Source: an uncultured Chloroflexia bacterium (GTDB lineage: Bacteria; Chloroflexota; Limnocylindria; QHBO01). From it: a stretch of DNA of 64,000 nt. The stretch covers positions 1,856,001-1,920,000 of the forward strand of contig CAWGTN010000002.1 of NCBI GenBank assembly GCA_963825525.1, given 5' to 3'. This document shows positions 6,204 through 16,122 of this stretch, one piece after another; position 1 is the stretch's first letter, and each line of letters starts with the position of its first letter. A program made the position numbers and the translations under genes. Below the pieces are notes generated by a model. It was not told the DNA's origin. It saw nothing but the letters and a program-made list of their open reading frames with translations, and ran no database searches.

Positions 6204-7059
6204 TCATTCTCCTCCGGCCACGCCGAACGAGCCCAGCACCCGCATCGAGCTGGTGTGCTGACGCAGCCCCGGCAGGGCCGATGCGAGTGGATCCGACGCG
6301 GCGTCGCCGGAGACCTGGACCAGGAATCGATACCGCCACGGCCCGCTGCCCGACGGCCGAGACTCGATGCGGCTGAGGTTGATCCCCGCGTCGGCGAGCG
6401 AGCCCAGCGCGCGGTACAGGTCGCCAGGCGTGTGGCCCGTCTCGAAGGTGATGAGCGTCTCCCGCGCGGCGTCCTCCGCCGGTGCGAGGGAGCCCGCGGC
6501 TTCGATCTGGCCGCCGTCATCGCGCCGAAGAACGGCGAAGCGCGTCATGTTGTGGGCGGCATCCTGGATGTCCGTCGCCGCGATCTCGAGCCCGTAGCGC
6601 TCGGCAGCGCGGGCCGATGCGATGGCCGCCGGAGCCGCGCTCGCCGCTCGCCGCCAGCTCCCGGGCCGCTCCCGCGGTGTCGGCCGCCGGGACGACATCC
6701 CAACCACGGTCGGAGAGGAAGCGCTCGCATTGCGAGAGTGCCTGCCAGTGGCTGCTCACCCTCCGGATCGCCCCGATCTCGACGCCCGGCAGGACGAGCA
6801 GCTGATGACGGATCGGCAGCAGCAGCTCACCGACCACGCGCAGCTCTCCATCGGCGAGCGCATCGAGCGCGTCGCCGACGGTGCCGGCCAGCGAGTTCTC
6901 GAGTGGCAGGACGCCGGCATCGGTCGTTCCATCCTCGACGGCGCCGCACACCGCCGAGAAGGTCGGCATCGGCATCGGCGTGGCGTCATCACCGAACCAG
7001 CCGACGACCGCCTCCTCGCCGAAGGCTCCCGGCTCGCCCTGGTAGGCCACCGTGGTCAT
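6204..7059 (-). CDS. pheA: Prephenate dehydratase with ACT domain (frameshift near 6640)
   Basis: MTTVAYQGEPGAFGEEA, LPLENSLAG, SHWQALSQC, then NMTRF and NLSRIESRP in the other frame. Confidence 0.92.
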
Positions 7060-8626
7060 GCGGCGATCGTCCGCAGCCCGAGCGTCGATCTCGGCGTCGG
7101 TGACGTCGTCCACCTCGCTCACCCGGCCGATCTCCATCGGCAGGATCCAGCGCTGGCGGCCGGCGTGGCGCTTCTTGTCGCCGAGCATGGCCGCGCGGAC
7201 GGCCGCCGGGTCGAACGTCCGGCGCAGTGCGAAGCCCAGCCCGTCGAGCAGCGAGTCAAGGCGATCCGCGAGCTGCGGATCCCCGCCACGGCCGGCGGCG
7301 ATGGCAGCCACCGCCCGCAGCCCGAGGGCGACGGCGGCGCCGTGCGAGAGCCCATAGCCGGACTCGATCTCGACGCCGTGGCCGATGGTGTGGCCCAGGT
7401 TCAGCGTGCGACGCTCGCCATCCTCGTACGGGTCGCGGTCGCACACGCCGAGCTTCAGGCGCGCGCTGCGCTCGATGATCGCGAAGCGAGCCGGCTCGTC
7501 GGTACGAAGGGCCGCCGCCCCCCGGTCCTCGATGAGCCGCCACAGCGCCGGATCGCCGATGAGCGACGACTTCACCGATTCCGCCATGCCGTCCCGGCGC
7601 TGGCCGATCGGCAGCGAGCGCAACGTCGCCACGTCCGAGATCACCGCGACCGGCGGCCAGAACGCGCCGACCGCGTTCTTCGCATCGCCAAGGTCGACCG
7701 CCACCTTGCCGCCGATGGCGCTGTCGGCCTGCGCCAGCCACGTGGTCGGCACCTGGATGAGCGGGATGCCGCGGGCATACAGCGCGGCCGCGGTCCCGGC
7801 GAGGTCGCCGATGGTTCCGCCGCCGACCGCCAGGAGGGGCACTCGAGCGCTCCACGCGATGCTTCACCAGCCACTCGAGGATGCGCTCCAGGGAACCGAT
7901 GCGTTTCGCACGCTCCCCACCCCGGATCGGGAGCATGGTTCGCGTTCCGAGCTGCCTGACGAGGCCCGGGAGCAGGTCCAGCAGCCGCCGATCCAGGACG
8001 ACCACGCCGTCCGGGACATCGTCGAGCTCCACGCCCATGACCACGCGGGCCATTGGCGCACCCATCGGGTGATGACGCGGGACTTCGGCGTCGAGCAGGC
8101 GGCGGGCCGACGTGACCCGCATACCGTTCATGACCTCGGTCGCCAGCGAATCAGGCGTTCCGCCCGCCTCGATGCGGAGGTCGGCGGCCCGATAGACGGC
8201 CGATCGACTGGCCAGGACCGCTGACGTCCGTTCGGTCGAGTACGGCTGGAGGGTGGGGCGTGCAACGCCGTCGGATCGCAGGCGCTCGTTCAGCCGTTCG
8301 GGGTCCAGGTCGAGCCATGCCACCGTGCCGTGCTGCCACAGCGCCCATCGGTTGAGGGGGTCCAGCGCGGCGCCACCGCCGGTCGAGATGATGGCGCCCG
8401 GCGTGGCGCATGCCTCGCGCACAGCCTCGGACTCCTCGACGCGGAACGCGGCCTCGCCGTGCCGTTCGATGTACGCGGGCACGGGCATGCCGATCCGTCG
8501 CTCGGCGAGCTCATCGGTGTCGAGATGGGGGACGCCCAGCCGCTGCGCCACGAGCTGGCCGACGGTCGACTTTCCGCTGCCCGGCATGCCGACCAGGACG
8601 ATGCCCGAGCGGTCCGGCTCAGACAT
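7056..8626 (-). CDS. aroKB: Bifunctional shikimate kinase / 3-dehydroquinate synthase (indels near 7845 and 7085)
   Basis: GMPGSGKST and STGGG (AroK) run in frame into the AroB N-terminus GERAK; then GGGTIGD, VPTTWLAQADSAIGGK, LNLGHTIGH, DKK. Confidence 0.9.
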
Positions 8627-9380
8627 CGGCCCCGGGACCCAGCTCCGTCCGCAGTGCGGCTCGCATGGCATCGATGGGCGCTTCGCGCTCGGCCCAGATC
8701 GAGAAGCTGAGCGCTGCCTGACGCAGCAGCATGCCCGCGCCGCCCCGGGCTCGGGCACCGATCTCGCGGGCGTCTCGCACCAGGCGTGACGGACTCGGCC
8801 GATACACGAGGTCGAGCACGGCCATCTCGCGTCGCAGGAGCGCAGCCGGCACAGGGGTCTCGTCGGCATCGGTGCCGATCGGCGTCGCGTTGATCAGCAG
8901 ATCCGCGGTCACCAGCGCCCCGGGCAGGCTCGCCCAGCGCGAGCGGTCGAGGACCAGGATCTCGTGGCAGCCCTCGGCGCGAAGCGCATCGGCGGCGGCG
9001 CGAGAGGCGCCACCAGCACCCAGGATCACGGCTCGGCGAATTCCCGGCGGCAGCTCACCGCGCAGGGCGGCGAGGTCGGTGTTGTGGGCCACCAGCCGGT
9101 CGTCATAGCGGACGATCGTGTTCGCCGCCCCCAGGCGCTTCACCTCGGGACCGAGCTCGTCGACCAGCGCGCAGACCGCCATCTTGTATGGCTTCGTGAC
9201 GTTGGCGCCGATGCGGTCGCCGGCCCGCAGCGCGGCCACCTCATCGGCGAGCTCGTGCGGCTCGACGTCGCGCAGCTCGTAGCGGGCATCGGCCCCGATC
9301 GCGTCGAACGCGGCGTTGTGCATCGCGGGCGACGCGGAGTAGCCGATGCCCTGGCCGAGCAGGACCGCCAGCGCCGTCAC
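8619..9380 (-). CDS. aroE: Shikimate dehydrogenase
   Basis: SASPAMHN, GANVTKPYK, AANT, HNTD, GAGGAS, NATPIG, DLVY, GMLLRQA. Confidence 0.95.
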   Translation of the reverse strand: MTALAVLLGQGIGYSASPAMHNAAFDAIGADARYELRDVEPHELADEVAALRAGDRIGANVTKPYKMAVCALVDELGPEVKRLGAANTIVRYDDRLVAHNTDLAALRGELPPGIRRAVILGAGGASRAAADALRAEGCHEILVLDRSRWASLPGALVTADLLINATPIGTDADETPVPAALLRREMAVLDLVYRPSPSRLVRDAREIGARARGGAGMLLRQAALSFSIWAEREAPIDAMRAALRTELGPGADV

Positions 9381-10576
9381 GCCGTGGAGCCCGGGCCGCG
9401 CGTGCGGCGACGGCGGCGGGACACGGCGGCCCGCAGATCGCCGATCGTGTCACCACCGAAGGAGTAGAGCAGCTCGTCGGCCAGGACCAGGGCCACCATC
9501 GCCTCGCCCACGATCGCCGCGCGCGGCAGGACGGTGACGTCACTGCGCTCGATGTGCGCGCGGCCGCTCTGGCCGGTCGTCATGTCGAGTGAGGGGAGCG
9601 GGGTCCGGAGCGTGGAGACCGGCTTCTGGGCGACACGGACCACGATCGGCTCGCCATTGCTGATGCCGCCCTCGATGCCCCCGGCGCGGTTCGTCCGGCG
9701 ATCCCAGCCGGAGCCCGCAGCGTCGACCACGTCATGGACGGTGCTCCCACGACGATCGACCGTGCCGAATCCGAGCCCGATCTCCACGCCCTTCACTCCC
9801 GGGATCGCCATCGTGGCGCCGGCCAGCAGGCCGTCGAGACGCGTGTCCCACTCGGACGACGAGCCCAGGCCGATCGGGGTGCCTTCGACCACGACCACGA
9901 ACGAGCCGCCGATCGAGTCGCCGGCCTCCTTTGCCGCGTCCACCTCGGCCAGCATGGCGCGCTCCGCTTCCGGGTCCGGGCAGCGGAGCGGGGAGGGATC
10001 GGCCAGGTCGCGATCGGCCCAGCCGTCGGGAATGGCGGCCAGGACGTCATCGGCGTCGGGAAAGGCCCGGATCGGCCCGAGCTGGTCCACGAAGCTCCAG
10101 ATGCGCACGCCGCAGGTGAGGAGCAACTGGCGCGCCAGCGAGCCAGCCACGACCCGCGGGGTGGTCGACCGTGCGGAGGCCCGCTCGAGCACGTTTCGGA
10201 CGTCGTCGGTGTCGTACTTCAGGGCGCCGGCCAGGTCGATGTGCCCGGGTCTGGCACGGGTGATCGCCTTCGGGCGTCGGGCAGCCGGGATCGGCTCCAC
10301 CGACATCCGGTCCAGCCAGTTGGCCCAGTCGCGGTTCTCGATGCTGAACCCGACCGGGGAGCCGAGCGTCCGCCCGTATCGGATGCCGGCGGTCCACTGC
10401 ACGCGATCCCGCTCGATCTGCATCCGCTTCCCGCTGCCGTAGCCGTGCTGGCGCCGCCGCAGGTCAAGGTCGACACCGCGCGTGCTGACCCGCATCCCGG
10501 CCGGCAGCCCCTCGAGAATGCCGGATAGCCCGGGGCCGTGCGACTCGCCACTGGTCAGCAGGCGCAGGCGGCGCAT
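9377..10576 (-). CDS. aroC: Chorismate synthase
   Basis: TSGESHG, RPGHIDL, ERASARST, NRAGGIEGGISNG, ERSD. Confidence 0.97.
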   Translation of the reverse strand: MRRLRLLTSGESHGPGLSGILEGLPAGMRVSTRGVDLDLRRRQHGYGSGKRMQIERDRVQWTAGIRYGRTLGSPVGFSIENRDWANWLDRMSVEPIPAARRPKAITRARPGHIDLAGALKYDTDDVRNVLERASARSTTPRVVAGSLARQLLLTCGVRIWSFVDQLGPIRAFPDADDVLAAIPDGWADRDLADPSPLRCPDPEAERAMLAEVDAAKEAGDSIGGSFVVVVEGTPIGLGSSSEWDTRLDGLLAGATMAIPGVKGVEIGLGFGTVDRRGSTVHDVVDAAGSGWDRRTNRAGGIEGGISNGEPIVVRVAQKPVSTLRTPLPSLDMTTGQSGRAHIERSDVTVLPRAAIVGEAMVALVLADELLYSFGGDTIGDLRAAVSRRRRRTRGPGSTA

Positions 10577-11862
10577 CAGCTCGTCACCGTGGCCAGGTCG
10601 TCCCAGAACGTCGGGTACGAGACGGCGGCGCAGTCCGGGTCGTCGAGCGTGACCCCGGCCGCGATTCCGGTGACCGCCGCCACGGCGAACGCAATGGCGA
10701 TCCGATGATCGCCGTGGGTTCGGACCTCGGCCTCCGCCGGCGTGCCACGGCTCACCCGCCAGCCATTGTCCAGCTCCTCCACGTTGGCGCCGATGGCGCG
10801 CAGGCCCTCGACCACGGCGCCGATGCGATCGGTCTCCTTCACGCGCAGCTCGTCGGCGTCACGCAGCTCCGAGGGCTCCGCGACCGATGCCATGGCGATC
10901 GCCACCAGGGGCAGCTCGTCGATGAGCTCGGCCACCTGCGCGCCATGGATGGTCACCGCTTCGAGCGGCCGCCCGCCGCGAACCACGACCTCGCCGATCG
11001 GCTCCGGGCCAGCAACGTCGATGATCCGCGTCTCGATCTGCACGCCCATCCGCTGCAGCAGGCCGATGAGCGCGAGCCGGGTCGGATTGAGCCCAACGCG
11101 CTCCATGTGGATCTCGGCATCGGGGTGCAGCGCCGCCGCAACCAGCCATGCGGAGGCGGCCGATGGATCACCCGGCACCTCGAGCTCGAACGGGCGCGGT
11201 CGCGCCGGGCCGGTGAGCTCGGTGATGGCGCCCGCTCGTCGGATGGGGACGCCCATCCAGGCCAGCATGCGTTCGGTGTGGTCGCGGGTCGGCCCTGGCG
11301 TCTCGATACTGGTCTCGCCCGCCGCGCTCAGCCCCGCCAGGACACACGCGCCCAGCAGCTGGGCGCTCGCGACCGACAGCCGATGGGTGACGGCGCCCGG
11401 TGACGCACGTCCGACGATCGTGATCGGGGCATGGCCGTCGGTGGTGCTCACTTCCGCACCCGTCTGACGGAGGAGCTCGGCGACGCGCTCCATCGGCCGC
11501 GCGCGGAGCGATGCATCACCGTCGAGCGTGGCCCGCAGCGGCAGTCCGGCCAGCATGCCCGACAGCAGGCGCATGGTGGTGCCGGAGTTGCCGCAGTCGA
11601 GCGCCGCATGGCGCATCGGCCTACCGCGAACCTCCCAGCGATCCTCCGCGGCGAGCTGGATCTCGACACCCAGCTCGCGCAGGCAGCCAATGGTGCTCAG
11701 CACGTCGAGCCCGGGCGTCCGCATCGTCACCGTCGACGGGCCGCCGGAGAGCGCCGCGAAGATGAAGGCGCGGTGCGCTATCGACTTGTCGGGCGGCAGC
11801 GTCAAGGTTCCCCGAAGACGTGCCGCGGGAAGTATCGTCGGCGTGATCGATGCCGGCGTCAC
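10576..11862 (-). CDS. aroA: EPSP synthase
   Basis: [49 protein letters not shown] at 11862 overlaps the aroF stop. Confidence 0.96.
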
Positions 11863-13202
11863 CGTGCGCTTCCGGCCGTGGCCGCTTCCGCTTCGGTCAC
11901 GGACTGGGCGTGGCGGCGCTGGACCGAGCGCGATGCGCGGAGCAGCGCGTCGAACACGAGCGTGAGCTCCACCGGCGTCATCGGGCCGGACGTGCCACCG
12001 GCGGCGCGCTCGAGAAGCGCCCGTTCCCGCCGCGGGTCGTGGCCATGCGCCCCCGGCGCGCGGCGTCGCTGGACCTCGAGAGCCAGGGCCGCCCGCTCCT
12101 GGACCATCTCGGCCAGCCGAGCGTCGAGGTCGTCGATCCGATCGCGCACGTCGTCGATTCCATCGGCCGCGGTCGAGGCGGCGGTCACCGCCTGGCTCTC
12201 CGGGGCGCGAACGAACTGGAGGCGCCGAAGCTCGTCCATCAGGCCGCCGAACTCGTCGAAGTTGAGGCTCTGGTCGCCGTCCGATCGGGCATTGGCCGGG
12301 TCCGGGTGGACCTCGATGATCAGCCCGTCCGCGCCGACTGCGGCGCCGGCCAGTGCCATCGGTCCAACGAGCGCGCGATGGCCCGTGCCGTGGCTGGGGT
12401 CGACGATGATCGGCAGGTGGGTCAGGCTCCGCAGAACGGGCACGGCTGACAGGTCGAGCGTGTTGCGCGTTGCCGTCTCGAACGTCCGGATGCCGCGCTC
12501 GCACAGGATCACGTTCGGGTTGCCGGCCGACAGGATGTACTCGGCGGCAAGCAGCCACTCCTCGATGGTCGCGCTGAGCCCACGCTTGAGCAGCACGGGG
12601 CGGCGGCTCTGGCCCACGGCCTTCAGGAGCACGAAGTTGTGCATGTTGCGCGCGCCGACCTGGAGGATGTCCACGTGCTCCTCGAAGATCGGCACGTCGG
12701 TCGAGTCGACGACCTCGCTGATGACCGGCAGACCGGTCGCCTCGCGCGCCTCGGCGAGCAGCTTGAGGGCGGGGAGACCGAGCCCCTGGAACGAGTACGG
12801 GGAGCTGCGCGGCTTGAAGGCGCCGCCGCGCAGGACGCGCGCGCCCTCGCGGGCAACGCAGCGGGCCGTTTCGAGCAGCTGGTCGCGGGACTCCACCGCG
12901 CACGGGCCGGCCATGACGACCAGCTCCTGGCCCAGCCCGATCTCCACGCCGTTGGCGCGGACCCTGGTGCGCTCACCGGGCTCCTGCATGCTCGCGAGCT
13001 TGTATGGCGAGCTGACCCGGATCACCTGGTCGACGCCCGGCAGCGTTCCGAGGTGGCTGATCCGCTCGACGTCGCCCACCACTCCGATGACGGTCCGCTC
13101 CTCGCCCTCGCTGAGGAAGGCTTCGAGGCCGTTCTCCTCGACGGTGCGTTTCACGCCGTCGATCTCTTCTCGCGTCGCCGTCGGACGCATCACCACGATC
13201 AT
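11859..13202 (-). CDS. aroF: Type I-beta DAHP synthase with N-terminal ferredoxin/ACT-like domain and C-terminal AroQ-class chorismate mutase domain
   Basis: MIVVMRP...TVIGVVGD; [37 protein letters not shown]; C-terminus [15 protein letters not shown]...ERAALA...DPRRE. Confidence 0.95.
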
Positions 13203-13262
13203 TCGGTTGCCGCCTCTCGCTTGTTGCGCCGTTGTTCCGTTGTGCCCCGGCCCGCATCGGGG

Positions 13263-13296
13263 AAACAAAAAACGCAGGAGCTTGCGCTTCCTGCGT
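13263..13296 (-). terminator. Attenuator intrinsic terminator upstream of aroF
   Basis: Minus strand ACGCAGGAAGC-GCAA-GCTCCTGCGT followed by TTTTTGTTT. Confidence 0.9.
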
Positions 13297-13349
13297 CTGC
13301 GGGCACGAGTGCCTCTGCCGGCGAGATCTACTCGCCTGCCTCGTACCCG

Positions 13350-13376
13350 CTAGCCATAAAACCACATTGCGTTCAT
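13350..13376 (-). CDS. Leader peptide MNAMWFYG of the aro operon attenuator
   Basis: ATG AAC GCA ATG TGG TTT TAT GGC TAG, lying between a promoter and a terminator; tandem Trp-Phe-Tyr codons. Confidence 0.85.
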   Translation of the reverse strand: MNAMWFYG

Positions 13377-13386
13377 TGGTCCGCGG

Positions 13387-13415
13387 ACTGTAGGCCGCGG
13401 CGTTCCGCGTGTCAA
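13387..13415 (-). promoter_or_regulatory. Sigma70-type promoter of the aro operon
   Basis: TTGACA-17 nt-TACAGT on the minus strand, ending 10 nt before the leader ATG. Confidence 0.85.
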
Positions 13416-14471: not shown

Positions 14472-14487
14472 GCGGCTCCAACTTCAG

Positions 14488-14740
14488 ACGGCAACGACCG
14501 GGACGAGTAGCCGGTTGCACGGTCAGAAGAGCGAGCCGGGATGGTGGAAGCCGGCGTGACACGGCATCGGTGAATGGACCCGCGAGCCTCGCTCCGAATG
14601 GGCACGACGCCCGGTAGGCAGCGACGGGACCGGCCACCGTTACCATCGGCCTCGAACGAGCGCGGACCCGACCGGGTCCGAACCAAGGGTGGCACCGCGG
14701 AATAGAGCCTCCGTCCCTGATCCGGATGGAGGCTTTGTCG
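14488..14740 (+). ncRNA. Trp-specific T-box riboswitch
   Basis: AGTA and AG boxes, GGTGGAA loop, specifier GAA-TGG-A (UGG at 14575-14577), T-box AACCAAGGGTGGCACCGCGG (14681-14700), hairpin AGCCTCCGTCC/GGATGGAGGCT. Confidence 0.93.
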
Positions 14741-14760
14741 TACGCCACAGCAGGAACCCG

Positions 14761-16122
14761 ATGACCATCGCAACCCCGGCACGCGTCACCAGCATCGAGC
14801 TGGCCGCGGACACGCTGACTCCCGTCGCCGCCGCGCTGCGTCTCGGGTCGCGCTGCGCGTTCCTCCTCGAGAGCGTGGAGGGCGGCGCGCGCTACGGGCG
14901 CTACTCGATCGCCGGCGTCCATGGCCGGACCCTGGTGGTCCAGCCGGGCGATGGAGATCCGCTCGAGGTCCTGCGCGCCGAGCTCCCGGACGTCACCCCC
15001 TCGGTCGGCGACCCGGCCTTCCCACTCGCCTCGGGGGTCGGCTACCTCGCCTACGAGGCCACCTCCCACTGGGAGCGGCTGCCGTCGCCCTCGAGCGACC
15101 CGCTCGCCATGCCGGACGCGGTGTTCCACGTGCCGTCGTCGGTCATCGTCTTCGATCACCTTGCCCAGGTGGCCCGCGTCGCAACCCTGGACGGGCCCGG
15201 GGCCGATGAGCGCCTGGCCGATGTCGTGCGCGCGCTGGCAACGCCGGCCCAGGGCGAGGTGCCCGCGCCATTCGCTGCGGCCGTCGTGCCGGTCGAGACG
15301 GACCCGGCGGCACGGGCCGCCTACGAGCGCGGGGTGGCGCGGCTGGTTGACGAGATCCACGCCGGCGAGATGCTGCAGACCGTCCTGGCACGACGCTTCT
15401 CGGTGCCCACGGATCGCACCGCGCTCGACATCTACCGATCGCTGCGACGCGTCAACCCGTCGCCGTACCTGTACTACCTCGACCTTGCGGTGGTGTCGCC
15501 GGGCGCCGCGGTTGTCGGAGCCTCGCCCGAGCTGCTGGTCCGGGTGCGCGACGGTGATGTGGTCACTCGGCCCATTGCCGGCACCCGACGTCGCGACGAC
15601 GATCCGGCCGTCGACGCCGCGCTCGAGGCCGAGCTGCGAGTGGATCCGAAGGAGCTGGCGGAGCACGCCATGCTCGTGGACCTGGCCCGTAACGATGTCG
15701 GCCGGGTGGCGGCCGCCGGGAGCGTCGAGGTCACCATCCTTCGCGACGTCGAGCGCTACGCCCACGTCATGCACCTCGTGTCGGAGGTTCGCGGCCGATT
15801 GGCGGACCGCCTCGACGCATTCGATGCCGTCCGTTCCGTCTTCCCCGCCGGCACCGTGAGCGGTGCCCCGAAAGTGCGCGCCATGGAGGCCATCGCCGAG
15901 CTCGAAGGGGAGCGGCGCGGCCCGTACGGCGGCGCGGTCGGCTACTTCTCGCCCACCGACGTTGAATGTGCGATCACCATTCGCAGCGCCCTGATCCGCG
16001 ACGGGGTGGCGACGGTCCATGCCGGGGCCGGGATCGTGGCGGACTCGGTTCCGGATCGGGAGGCGGCCGAGGTGGCGGCCAAGGCGGCCTCGATGCTGGC
16101 GGCCATCGGCGGTCCATCGTGA
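14761..16122 (+). CDS. trpE: Anthranilate synthase component I
   Basis: LLESVEGG...GRYS, NPSPYLY, GASPELLV, PIAGT, EHAMLVDLARND, GTVSGAPK, AGAGIV. The Trp T-box upstream favours TrpE over PabB. Confidence 0.92.
   Translation: MTIATPARVTSIELAADTLTPVAAALRLGSRCAFLLESVEGGARYGRYSIAGVHGRTLVVQPGDGDPLEVLRAELPDVTPSVGDPAFPLASGVGYLAYEATSHWERLPSPSSDPLAMPDAVFHVPSSVIVFDHLAQVARVATLDGPGADERLADVVRALATPAQGEVPAPFAAAVVPVETDPAARAAYERGVARLVDEIHAGEMLQTVLARRFSVPTDRTALDIYRSLRRVNPSPYLYYLDLAVVSPGAAVVGASPELLVRVRDGDVVTRPIAGTRRRDDDPAVDAALEAELRVDPKELAEHAMLVDLARNDVGRVAAAGSVEVTILRDVERYAHVMHLVSEVRGRLADRLDAFDAVRSVFPAGTVSGAPKVRAMEAIAELEGERRGPYGGAVGYFSPTDVECAITIRSALIRDGVATVHAGAGIVADSVPDREAAEVAAKAASMLAAIGGPS

Follow-up and report, generated by a model that had tools for sequence, protein, structure and literature searches.

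A compact aromatic leader peptide ahead of aroF in Limnocylindria is a candidate transcription attenuator of the aro operon

The window analyzed here is a 64,000-nucleotide (nt) stretch of DNA with a G+C content of 69.6% from an uncultured Chloroflexota (Limnocylindria) bacterium. It contains an operon for aromatic amino acid synthesis that begins with aroF, and the short leader region ahead of aroF is the subject of this study; all coordinates of the leader and of the aro genes refer to the minus strand. The leader starts with a sigma-70-type promoter (13387..13415) composed of TTGACA (13415-13410), a 17-nt spacer and TACAGT (13392-13387). A promoter scan credits this site with 10 of 12 matches and finds two promoter-like sites in 2 kb, versus 0.1 expected from shuffled sequences. 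The ATG (13376) of an upstream open reading frame (uORF) follows the -10 hexamer after no more than 10 nt, and from this promoter spacing we infer that the leader transcript is leaderless or nearly so. The predicted uORF (13350..13376) has eight codons and a stop, ATG AAC GCA ATG TGG TTT TAT GGC TAG, and encodes M-N-A-M-W-F-Y-G. Three of its eight codons are aromatic, one each for tryptophan (Trp, W), phenylalanine (Phe, F) and tyrosine (Tyr, Y), and they are adjacent (13356..13364; TGG 13364-13362, TTT 13361-13359, TAT 13358-13356). Two of the three, TTT and TAT, are rare in this DNA, as a preliminary description of the window had noted: in five window genes TTT accounts for 2 of the 33 Phe codons and TAT for 2 of the 25 Tyr codons.

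The uORF runs into a 52-nt hairpin, which we call P1 (13299..13350; 5' arm GCGGGTACGAG, 3' arm CTCGTGCCCGC in the minimum free energy fold). The first paired base of P1 is the G of the TAG stop codon, that is, its last base, and the first bases of TGG, TTT and TAT lie 14, 11 and 8 nt ahead of this first pair. In the outer stem of P1, positions 13350-13338 pair with 13318-13317 and 13309-13299, and the stem encloses an inner hairpin, GGCGAG/CTCGCC, at 13336-13320. After a gap of 3 nt follows a predicted intrinsic terminator (13263..13295), whose stem-loop (13295-13273; stem CGCAGGAAGC / GCTCCTGCG, with one bulged A and a GCAA loop) is succeeded by the tract T6-G-T3 (13272-13263). The T-tract ends 60 nt before the ATG of aroF, so the predicted terminator sits between the uORF and the first structural gene. 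RNAfold applied to the leader returns exactly P1 and the terminator, with -60.6 kcal/mol and z = -4.04, and one of 200 shuffled sequences is equally stable. Terminators of the hairpin-plus-T-run type are few in this genome of 2.58 Mb, a crude scan of all of it giving only 23. The preliminary description had reported the promoter, the almost leaderless 8-codon frame, a long hairpin starting at its stop and a GNRA-capped terminator with a U-tract, and our analysis places all of these where it had put them.

The element is conserved well beyond the window. In the genus of the window, 19 loci offer sufficient sequence ahead of aroF, among them one from the unpublished genome G006, and the element is present at every one. 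The residues W-F-Y are invariant in 19 of 19 loci, the first four codons vary, and the last codon encodes G or V. At the loci that we read, the gene upstream changes among relatives and the leader remains with aroF. Other families of the class carry a different-looking leader of the same build, with 11-12 codons, a cluster of F, Y and W and a P-A-stop end, followed by a hairpin and a terminator. A covariance model (R1) was built from 34 leaders, and the class-wide search with it used stricter filters; of 151 Limnocylindria genomes it matches 63, two of them unpublished, and each of the 63 contains exactly one copy. Leaving aside the window's own genome, the matches by family amount to 16/50, 0/49, 41/44, 5/6 and 0/1. 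In the family with matches in 0 of 49 genomes (f2), a single locus (L029) was read; there aroF directly follows another coding region and seems to lie inside an operon.

Re-alignment of the leaders gave 87 matches, 82 of them distinct (alignment A2), and all counts out of 82 below refer to these distinct leaders. The N-terminus of AroF is encoded downstream on the same strand in 64 of the 82 at E < 1e-3, and 16 further leaders, for which the 150 nt of downstream sequence compared were too short for more, are followed by short, weak AroF alignments that start at residue 1; of the remaining two, one has an AroF alignment from residue 31 and the other is unclear. P1 and the terminator covary. Taken together, 96.7% of their cells in the alignment are paired and 13 of 22 pairs are changed on both sides, a result reached by none of 500 shuffles, and slid controls on the same leaders leave 33-46% of cells paired; as most of these double changes fall between two lineages, the number of independent events behind them is small. 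In the outer stem of P1 considered separately, both sides are changed in 8 of 13 pairs, with 96% of cells paired, while the terminator stem has 99% of cells paired, changes on both sides in 3 of 7 core pairs, and a core, GCAG/CUGC, that is invariant in all 82 leaders.

The dimensions of the element are conserved as well. P1 spans 47-57 nt (52 nt in 57 of 82), the linker from P1 to the terminator measures 2-7 nt in every leader, and the distance from the stop codon to the terminator stem, 55 nt in the window, is about 45-55 nt in all 82. TTGAC[A/G/T/C] occurs in 81 of 82 leaders, and the -10 hexamer lies 9-13 nt from the start codon in 75; this conserved promoter spacing indicates that the near-leaderless build is a trait of the family. 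The alignment of relatives proposed in the preliminary description thus shows both a conserved aromatic uORF and covarying stems. These comparisons support a conserved leader-peptide element tied to aroF, with the W, F and Y codons as its conserved core.

A uORF of 8-14 codons is found in 82 of 82 leaders, starting with ATG in 78 and GTG in 4, and its frame relative to P1 is identical in all of them. Counting from the first base of a codon to the first P1 pair, an aromatic codon stands at -17 in 30 of 82 leaders, at -14 in 80, at -11 in 75, at -8 in all 82 and at -5 in none. All three residues F, W and Y are encoded by the uORF of 36 leaders, whereas 42 leaders have F and Y, 3 have W and Y, and 1 has only F; F, Y and W interchange at the same positions, and the other codons vary freely. 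The stop codon falls at the base of P1 or within its 5' arm in every leader: in 29 leaders its first base precedes the first P1 pair by 2 nt, in 51 it is 7 nt into the arm, and in 2 it is 10 nt into the arm. The choice of Phe codon also depends on position: TTC is used at -17 (20/21) and -14 (35/35), and the rare TTT at -11 (38/38) and -8 (34/35). The preference for TTT near the hairpin could reflect slower wobble decoding beside the hairpin, or a need for a run of U at the level of the RNA. According to PMC1183508, which treats attenuation as a race of transcription versus translation, rare regulatory codons raise sensitivity.

Judged from this pattern, the leader is very probably an aromatic-sensing, leader-peptide transcription attenuator of the aro operon. 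One may ask if amino acids are sensed at all, or if the terminator merely acts as a constitutive damper or a source of small RNA, with the short frame kept as a functional peptide or as an RNA sequence. A sub-threshold match of the leader to a small-RNA family in Rfam, Atu_C8, at 34.4 bits versus 50, would fit such a role, as would the contigs of relatives in RNA libraries that span the leader. However, conservation in the uORF coincides exactly with the three aromatic residues, which keep a fixed frame ahead of the gene for the first enzyme of aromatic synthesis, and free variation elsewhere together with the interchange of F, Y and W is unlike a functional peptide or a pure RNA motif. Furthermore, aromatic-rich leaders before aroF recur in many phyla, and the one from Corynebacterium glutamicum is reported to work. 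We therefore consider an element that senses no amino acid very improbable.

The RNA-library contigs cover 13244-13367 and come from relatives in four RNA or possibly-RNA libraries, at a depth of 2-18, so that transcript ends, strand and level are not readable from them. Three of them extend past the downstream end of the leader, one of the three resembling the region of a relative's aroF ribosome-binding site, and these may be read-through RNA or DNA. One contig, from a single study, ends at 13272, the first T of the tract.

Membership in Atu_C8 (RF02502) was considered and rejected: the match spans 13257-13381 (-) and the full length of the model, its 34.4 bits lie below the cut-off of 50, and the genome-wide search gave no match to this family at E <= 0.01. 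Among 20 leaders scanned, one from a relative (L150:144-270) also matched, at 30.3 bits. In the consensus of Atu_C8, a small RNA of Rhizobiales, an apparent short frame rich in Ile, Leu and Val comes first, and a long hairpin and then a terminator follow; the Val codons of this consensus stand opposite the F and Y codons of the leader. It is conceivable that Atu_C8, too, is an attenuator with a leader peptide and a comparable build; a literature search under that name returned nothing relevant.

In classical attenuators the terminator competes with a base-paired antiterminator, and the preliminary description had proposed one here, formed by GCAGG downstream of the uORF and CCTGC in the 3' arm of the terminator. 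In a wider version of this explanation GCAGG (13338-13334), or GCAGAGG of the loop, would pair with CCTGC, perhaps as a pseudoknot from within a closed P1 and through kinetic competition when the ribosome stalls. Both words are indeed present, and GCAGG-like words occur up to three times, on the 5' side of P1, in the internal loop of most members of the genus (as CGCAGG) and in the 5' arm of the terminator; in addition, pairing between the interior of P1 and the terminator 3' arm would be a pseudoknot, which is beyond what RNAfold scores. To look for any such competitor we used constrained folding, in which the bases under the ribosome were blocked up to 10 or 13 nt past the first base of the A site, the ribosome was placed on -14, -11, -8 or the stop codon, and pair probabilities were calculated for a transcript that stops where the terminator stem ends. 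No antiterminator emerged: across the six stalled states of all 82 leaders the terminator core never drops below a probability of 0.82 (median 0.97), and an earlier run on 20 leaders gave the same result.

The same procedure does find antiterminators elsewhere. In 9 of 12 longer aromatic aroF leaders of other phyla, which served as a positive control, the terminator falls below 0.3, and these control leaders lose it with the ribosome on aromatic codons only, keeping 0.79-1.0 without a ribosome or with the ribosome on the stop; this shows that the method can detect classical antiterminators. Classical attenuator behaviour in folding was observed for the aromatic-rich aroF leaders of 17-32 codons at L039, L041, L042, L046, L050, L063, L073, L079 and L099, from Acidobacteriota, Syntrophales-like bacteria and Calditrichota.

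Two further comparisons speak against a classical RNA switch in Limnocylindria. A search of all column pairs of the 82 leaders for a third conserved helix returned only P1, the terminator and pairings of purines with the U-tract. The complementarity between the interior of P1 and the terminator arms is at the level of dinucleotide shuffles across 28 distinct leaders, including one of an unpublished genome: the 3' arm has a mean z of +0.24 and the 5' arm one of -0.34, so that the duplexes are no more stable than those with shuffled interiors. The loop word itself varies within the genus (GCAGAGG, GCGAAGG, GCGCAGG, GCACAGG), whereas the terminator arm is invariant, and one relative (L011) has GCCGG at the first site. 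A base-paired antiterminator is thus improbable for these leaders, and of the preliminary proposal it is the leader-peptide attenuator with W, F and Y as sensor codons that stands, while the alternative fold offered as its switch has to be given up.

What the position of the ribosome does change in the constrained folds is P1. With the ribosome on -14 or -11 the outer stem of P1 has a probability of 1.00, and with the ribosome on the stop codon 0.00; on -8 the value is 0.77 with a 10-nt footprint and has a median of 0.07 with a 13-nt footprint. Along the uORF, the aromatic codons thus occupy the final three positions at which a ribosome can leave P1 intact. When the 5' arm is blocked, the 3' arm of P1 can pair locally with the bases preceding it; in all 82 leaders such a hairpin would occupy 4-10 of the 11 bases of the arm, with a mean stability z of only -0.8. 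We lean towards the view that a closed P1 is the "on" signal of amino acid starvation and an opened P1 the sign of plenty.

Putting these observations together, we propose a ribosome-mediated attenuator in which charged tRNA-Trp, tRNA-Phe and tRNA-Tyr are read through the near-leaderless 8-codon uORF, with a probability that we put at roughly three in four; in our working model a closed P1 switches the operon on. Transcription would begin a few bases before the AUG, and the ribosome would load at the 5' end, as the promoter spacing suggests. When all three aromatic aminoacyl-tRNAs are plentiful, the ribosome would arrive at the stop codon and unzip the outer stem of P1; meanwhile RNA polymerase would make the 3' arm of P1 and the terminator, a step whose geometry is visible in the leaders and whose timing we presume. 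The terminator, then about 50 nt away from the ribosome, would fold, and the transcript would end at the T-tract. If any one of the three aminoacyl-tRNAs is scarce, the ribosome would instead wait with a W, F or Y codon in its A site, and P1 would stay closed. With the Y codon (-8) in the A site, the first pair of P1 is base +12 counted from the first P-site base. This corresponds to about the mouth of the mRNA channel, where the ribosomal helicase unwinds duplexes.

The closed P1 would remove about 52 nt of path, so that the terminator stem would start 2-7 nt past a helix that abuts the stalled 70S ribosome: from the A site at the Y codon through the closed P1 to the terminator there are 8 nt plus these 2-7 nt. 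The last pairs of the terminator would then presumably be unable to close inside RNA polymerase, resulting in read-through. Since we find no base-paired antiterminator, we infer a steric read-out; that the closed P1 acts on the terminator in this way, as a collapsible spacer that allows attenuation without an antiterminator, is a tentative suggestion and the most doubtful part of our account. An effect of this kind has been described for the tR2 terminator in E. coli, where, according to PMC4824070, shifting the stop codon closer, to 5 bp upstream instead of 28 bp, lowered termination from about 90% to less than 10%, and where, by the authors' estimate, 10-15 nt have to be free between the A site and the hairpin. 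A short leaderless frame would make for a tight race between ribosome and polymerase, and with rare codons one codon per amino acid could suffice. The idea that the leader works as an OR-gate, as the preliminary description put it, follows from the presence of three different codons in series.

Another way to connect P1 with read-through is that the closed hairpin itself is the antiterminator, acting on RNA polymerase or via a protein, and that the ribosome only decides on the folding of P1. The put RNAs of phage HK022 are a model for an RNA antiterminator that acts on polymerase. The sequence of the P1 outer stem is indeed conserved beyond the need for pairing, as two pairs never vary and four more are of one type in at least 74 of the 82 leaders, and this conservation spans families whose AroF proteins are only about 55-60% identical; the invariance of the terminator core and the lack of an RNA-RNA competitor in our searches point in the same direction. 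However, the stop codon and the last codons lie inside the 5' arm and explain part of the conservation of the stem, and the internal loop and inner hairpin, the expected binding pocket, vary in sequence and length. No candidate gene for a protein travels with the leader in the loci read, and no Rfam family matches the leader at threshold. We consider it unlikely, therefore, that P1 acts by itself or through a protein, and prefer the account in which the stalled ribosome takes part in the read-out.

Several observations weigh against the attenuator that we propose. A Trp codon is absent from 42 of the 82 leaders. If the footprint of the ribosome were 13 nt, the invariant -8 position would be a misfit to the requirement that P1 stays closed. 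P1 and the terminator have no bases in common and are compatible in secondary structure, so the last step must be of a non-Watson-Crick kind, and nearest-neighbour folding cannot judge the sterics of a helix 2-7 nt upstream of the terminator. A closed P1 that is sufficient alone would make an untranslated leader read through. The simple terminator scan does not list the leader terminator, with its bulged stem, among its sites. Finally, the closest experimental parallel, aroR of C. glutamicum, responds to Phe and shows no response to Tyr according to the review PMC11802643, and sensing of all three amino acids is therefore not assured.

The comparison with aroR nevertheless provides the closest precedent, and it overtakes the statement in the preliminary description that no characterized example was known. 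In C. glutamicum, aroR (Phe-Tyr-Phe) precedes aroF and is described as a working attenuator in which stalling raises transcription (Neshat et al. 2014, as summarized in PMC11802643). In both cases a mixed aromatic leader peptide lies directly before an operon that starts with DAHP synthase. As far as its description goes, aroR differs in having no Trp codon, whereas the window leader contains W, F and Y once each in eight codons, is near-leaderless and has no antiterminator. A second case is uORFC-13-1 before aroF in Acholeplasma, a conserved uORF with Phe just before the terminator stem that has been proposed as an attenuator (PMC8632094); it belongs to another phylum, has another consensus, described as centred on Phe, and is likewise a proposal. 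Among 80 aroF loci we found aromatic-rich uORFs 130-230 nt before aroF in many phyla. For an aroF leader in Chloroflexota, no description was found in the literature searched.

The window leader shares with the enterobacterial trpL and pheL leaders a uORF with regulatory codons, a hairpin, an intrinsic terminator, a biosynthetic operon and a race between ribosome and polymerase. However, in trpL and pheL the codons of a single amino acid stand in runs, the 2:3 antiterminator has bases in common with the terminator, and the ribosome masks region 1 when it stalls, whereas the window leader has one codon for each of three amino acids, its hairpin and terminator use separate bases, and a stalled ribosome does not disrupt the hairpin. 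A mutually exclusive antiterminator, the mark of the trpL/pheL class, was found in 0 of 82 leaders by constrained folding, and the Rfam families Trp_leader and Phe_leader give no match to the leader even at E up to 10.

With tR2 repression and pyrBI-type control the leader would share the working without an antiterminator and a read-out, presumed in our case, in which a ribosome near the terminator blocks its closing. There, however, the frame reaches or passes the terminator and translation means read-through, whereas the window uORF ends about 50 nt upstream, and the ribosome would come close to the terminator only through the folding of P1 and only on a stall. The mycobacterial polycysteine short ORFs, as described in bioRxiv 10.1101/834739, are likewise leaderless sensory ORFs in which pausing reads the supply of an amino acid; they act on translation, the stalled ribosome blocking a structure that hides the next ribosome-binding site. 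In the window leader, by contrast, an intrinsic terminator follows the uORF, and the ribosome-binding site of aroF lies beyond it. Attenuation as a mechanism and aroF as its target are thus already known; the compact leaderless build, the exact geometry and the working without an antiterminator are undescribed in the literature that we searched.

The operon behind the leader comprises eight genes on the minus strand, from 13202 down to 5777, and the gene ends abut or overlap. Pfam domains confirm the order aroF-aroA-aroC-aroE-aroKB-pheA-aroQ of the preliminary description; for the genes after aroF, the exact starts are estimates from domain positions. The first gene, aroF (11859..13202), encodes 447 amino acids with a ferredoxin-like regulatory domain (PF18152, 7.8e-20), a DAHP synthase domain (PF00793, 4.6e-80) and a type II chorismate mutase domain (PF01817, 4.7e-10). 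AroF is therefore a three-domain fusion with a C-terminal chorismate mutase; relatives outside the genus match only residues 1 to about 330-350 and seem to be without the mutase part. The closest named public AroF records, at 80-85% identity, are from metagenome-assembled genomes of Candidatus Limnocylindria (Chloroflexota). Next come aroA (10576 to about 11860; EPSP_synthase), aroC (9377-10576; Chorismate_synt), aroE (8619-9380; Shikimate_dh_N/SDH_C), aroK-aroB (about 7000-8626; SKI and DHQ_synthase/DHQS_C), pheA (about 6204-7050; PDT and ACT) and aroQ, which encodes a type II dehydroquinase (5777 to about 6202; DHquinase_II). By its predicted gene content the operon covers all seven steps of the shikimate pathway and two steps towards Phe, and makes chorismate and Phe.

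Two of these genes, aroB (at about 7840) and pheA (at about 6620-6707), are each split across two reading frames on the minus strand. The DHQ-synthase profile begins at its position 34 in a new frame, right after the aroK frame, which carries an apparent N-terminal part of the synthase. The PDT domain switches frame at profile position 138, and the ACT domain lies in that second frame as well; aroB and pheA have one shared frame with no stop in between. The frame breaks may be assembly indels, or they may be real frameshifts or fusions.

On the other strand, a T-box leader (14485-14721, +) lies immediately ahead of trpE (14689-16122) and overlaps its start; it scores 79.1 bits versus a cut-off of 93, with E 1e-17 in a local search, and the position of its specifier reads UGG. 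Besides the W-F-Y leader that serves the common pathway, there thus appears to be a separate tRNA-Trp sensor for the Trp branch. A strict pattern of promoter, short ORF and terminator, applied to the genome in search of further leaders of the same build, matched only the aroF leader. A candidate rich in Val, Leu and Ile from a looser scan of the 23 terminator-like sites turned out to be the C-terminus of the gene that precedes a structured greA leader. At that place (G000:C1:109067-109223, +), greA is closely preceded by a promoter, TTGACT-17-TACAAT, about 100 nt of structured leader and a terminator with a strong hairpin and a T-run. The arrangement recalls the greA leader RNA of E. coli.

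In the attenuator proposed here, one codon for each of three amino acids would guard the common pathway, while the Trp branch appears to have its own tRNA-Trp T-box. The build is extremely compact and near-leaderless, its geometry is exact to the single nucleotide in 82 of 82 leaders, and the competing hairpin of classical attenuators is demonstrably absent under a test that finds such hairpins in other phyla. If the steric read-out were true, it would represent a new way for the ribosome to control an intrinsic terminator, and would offer a small, portable design for synthetic sensors. The leader also gives a handle on gene regulation in an uncultured and widespread class of Chloroflexota.

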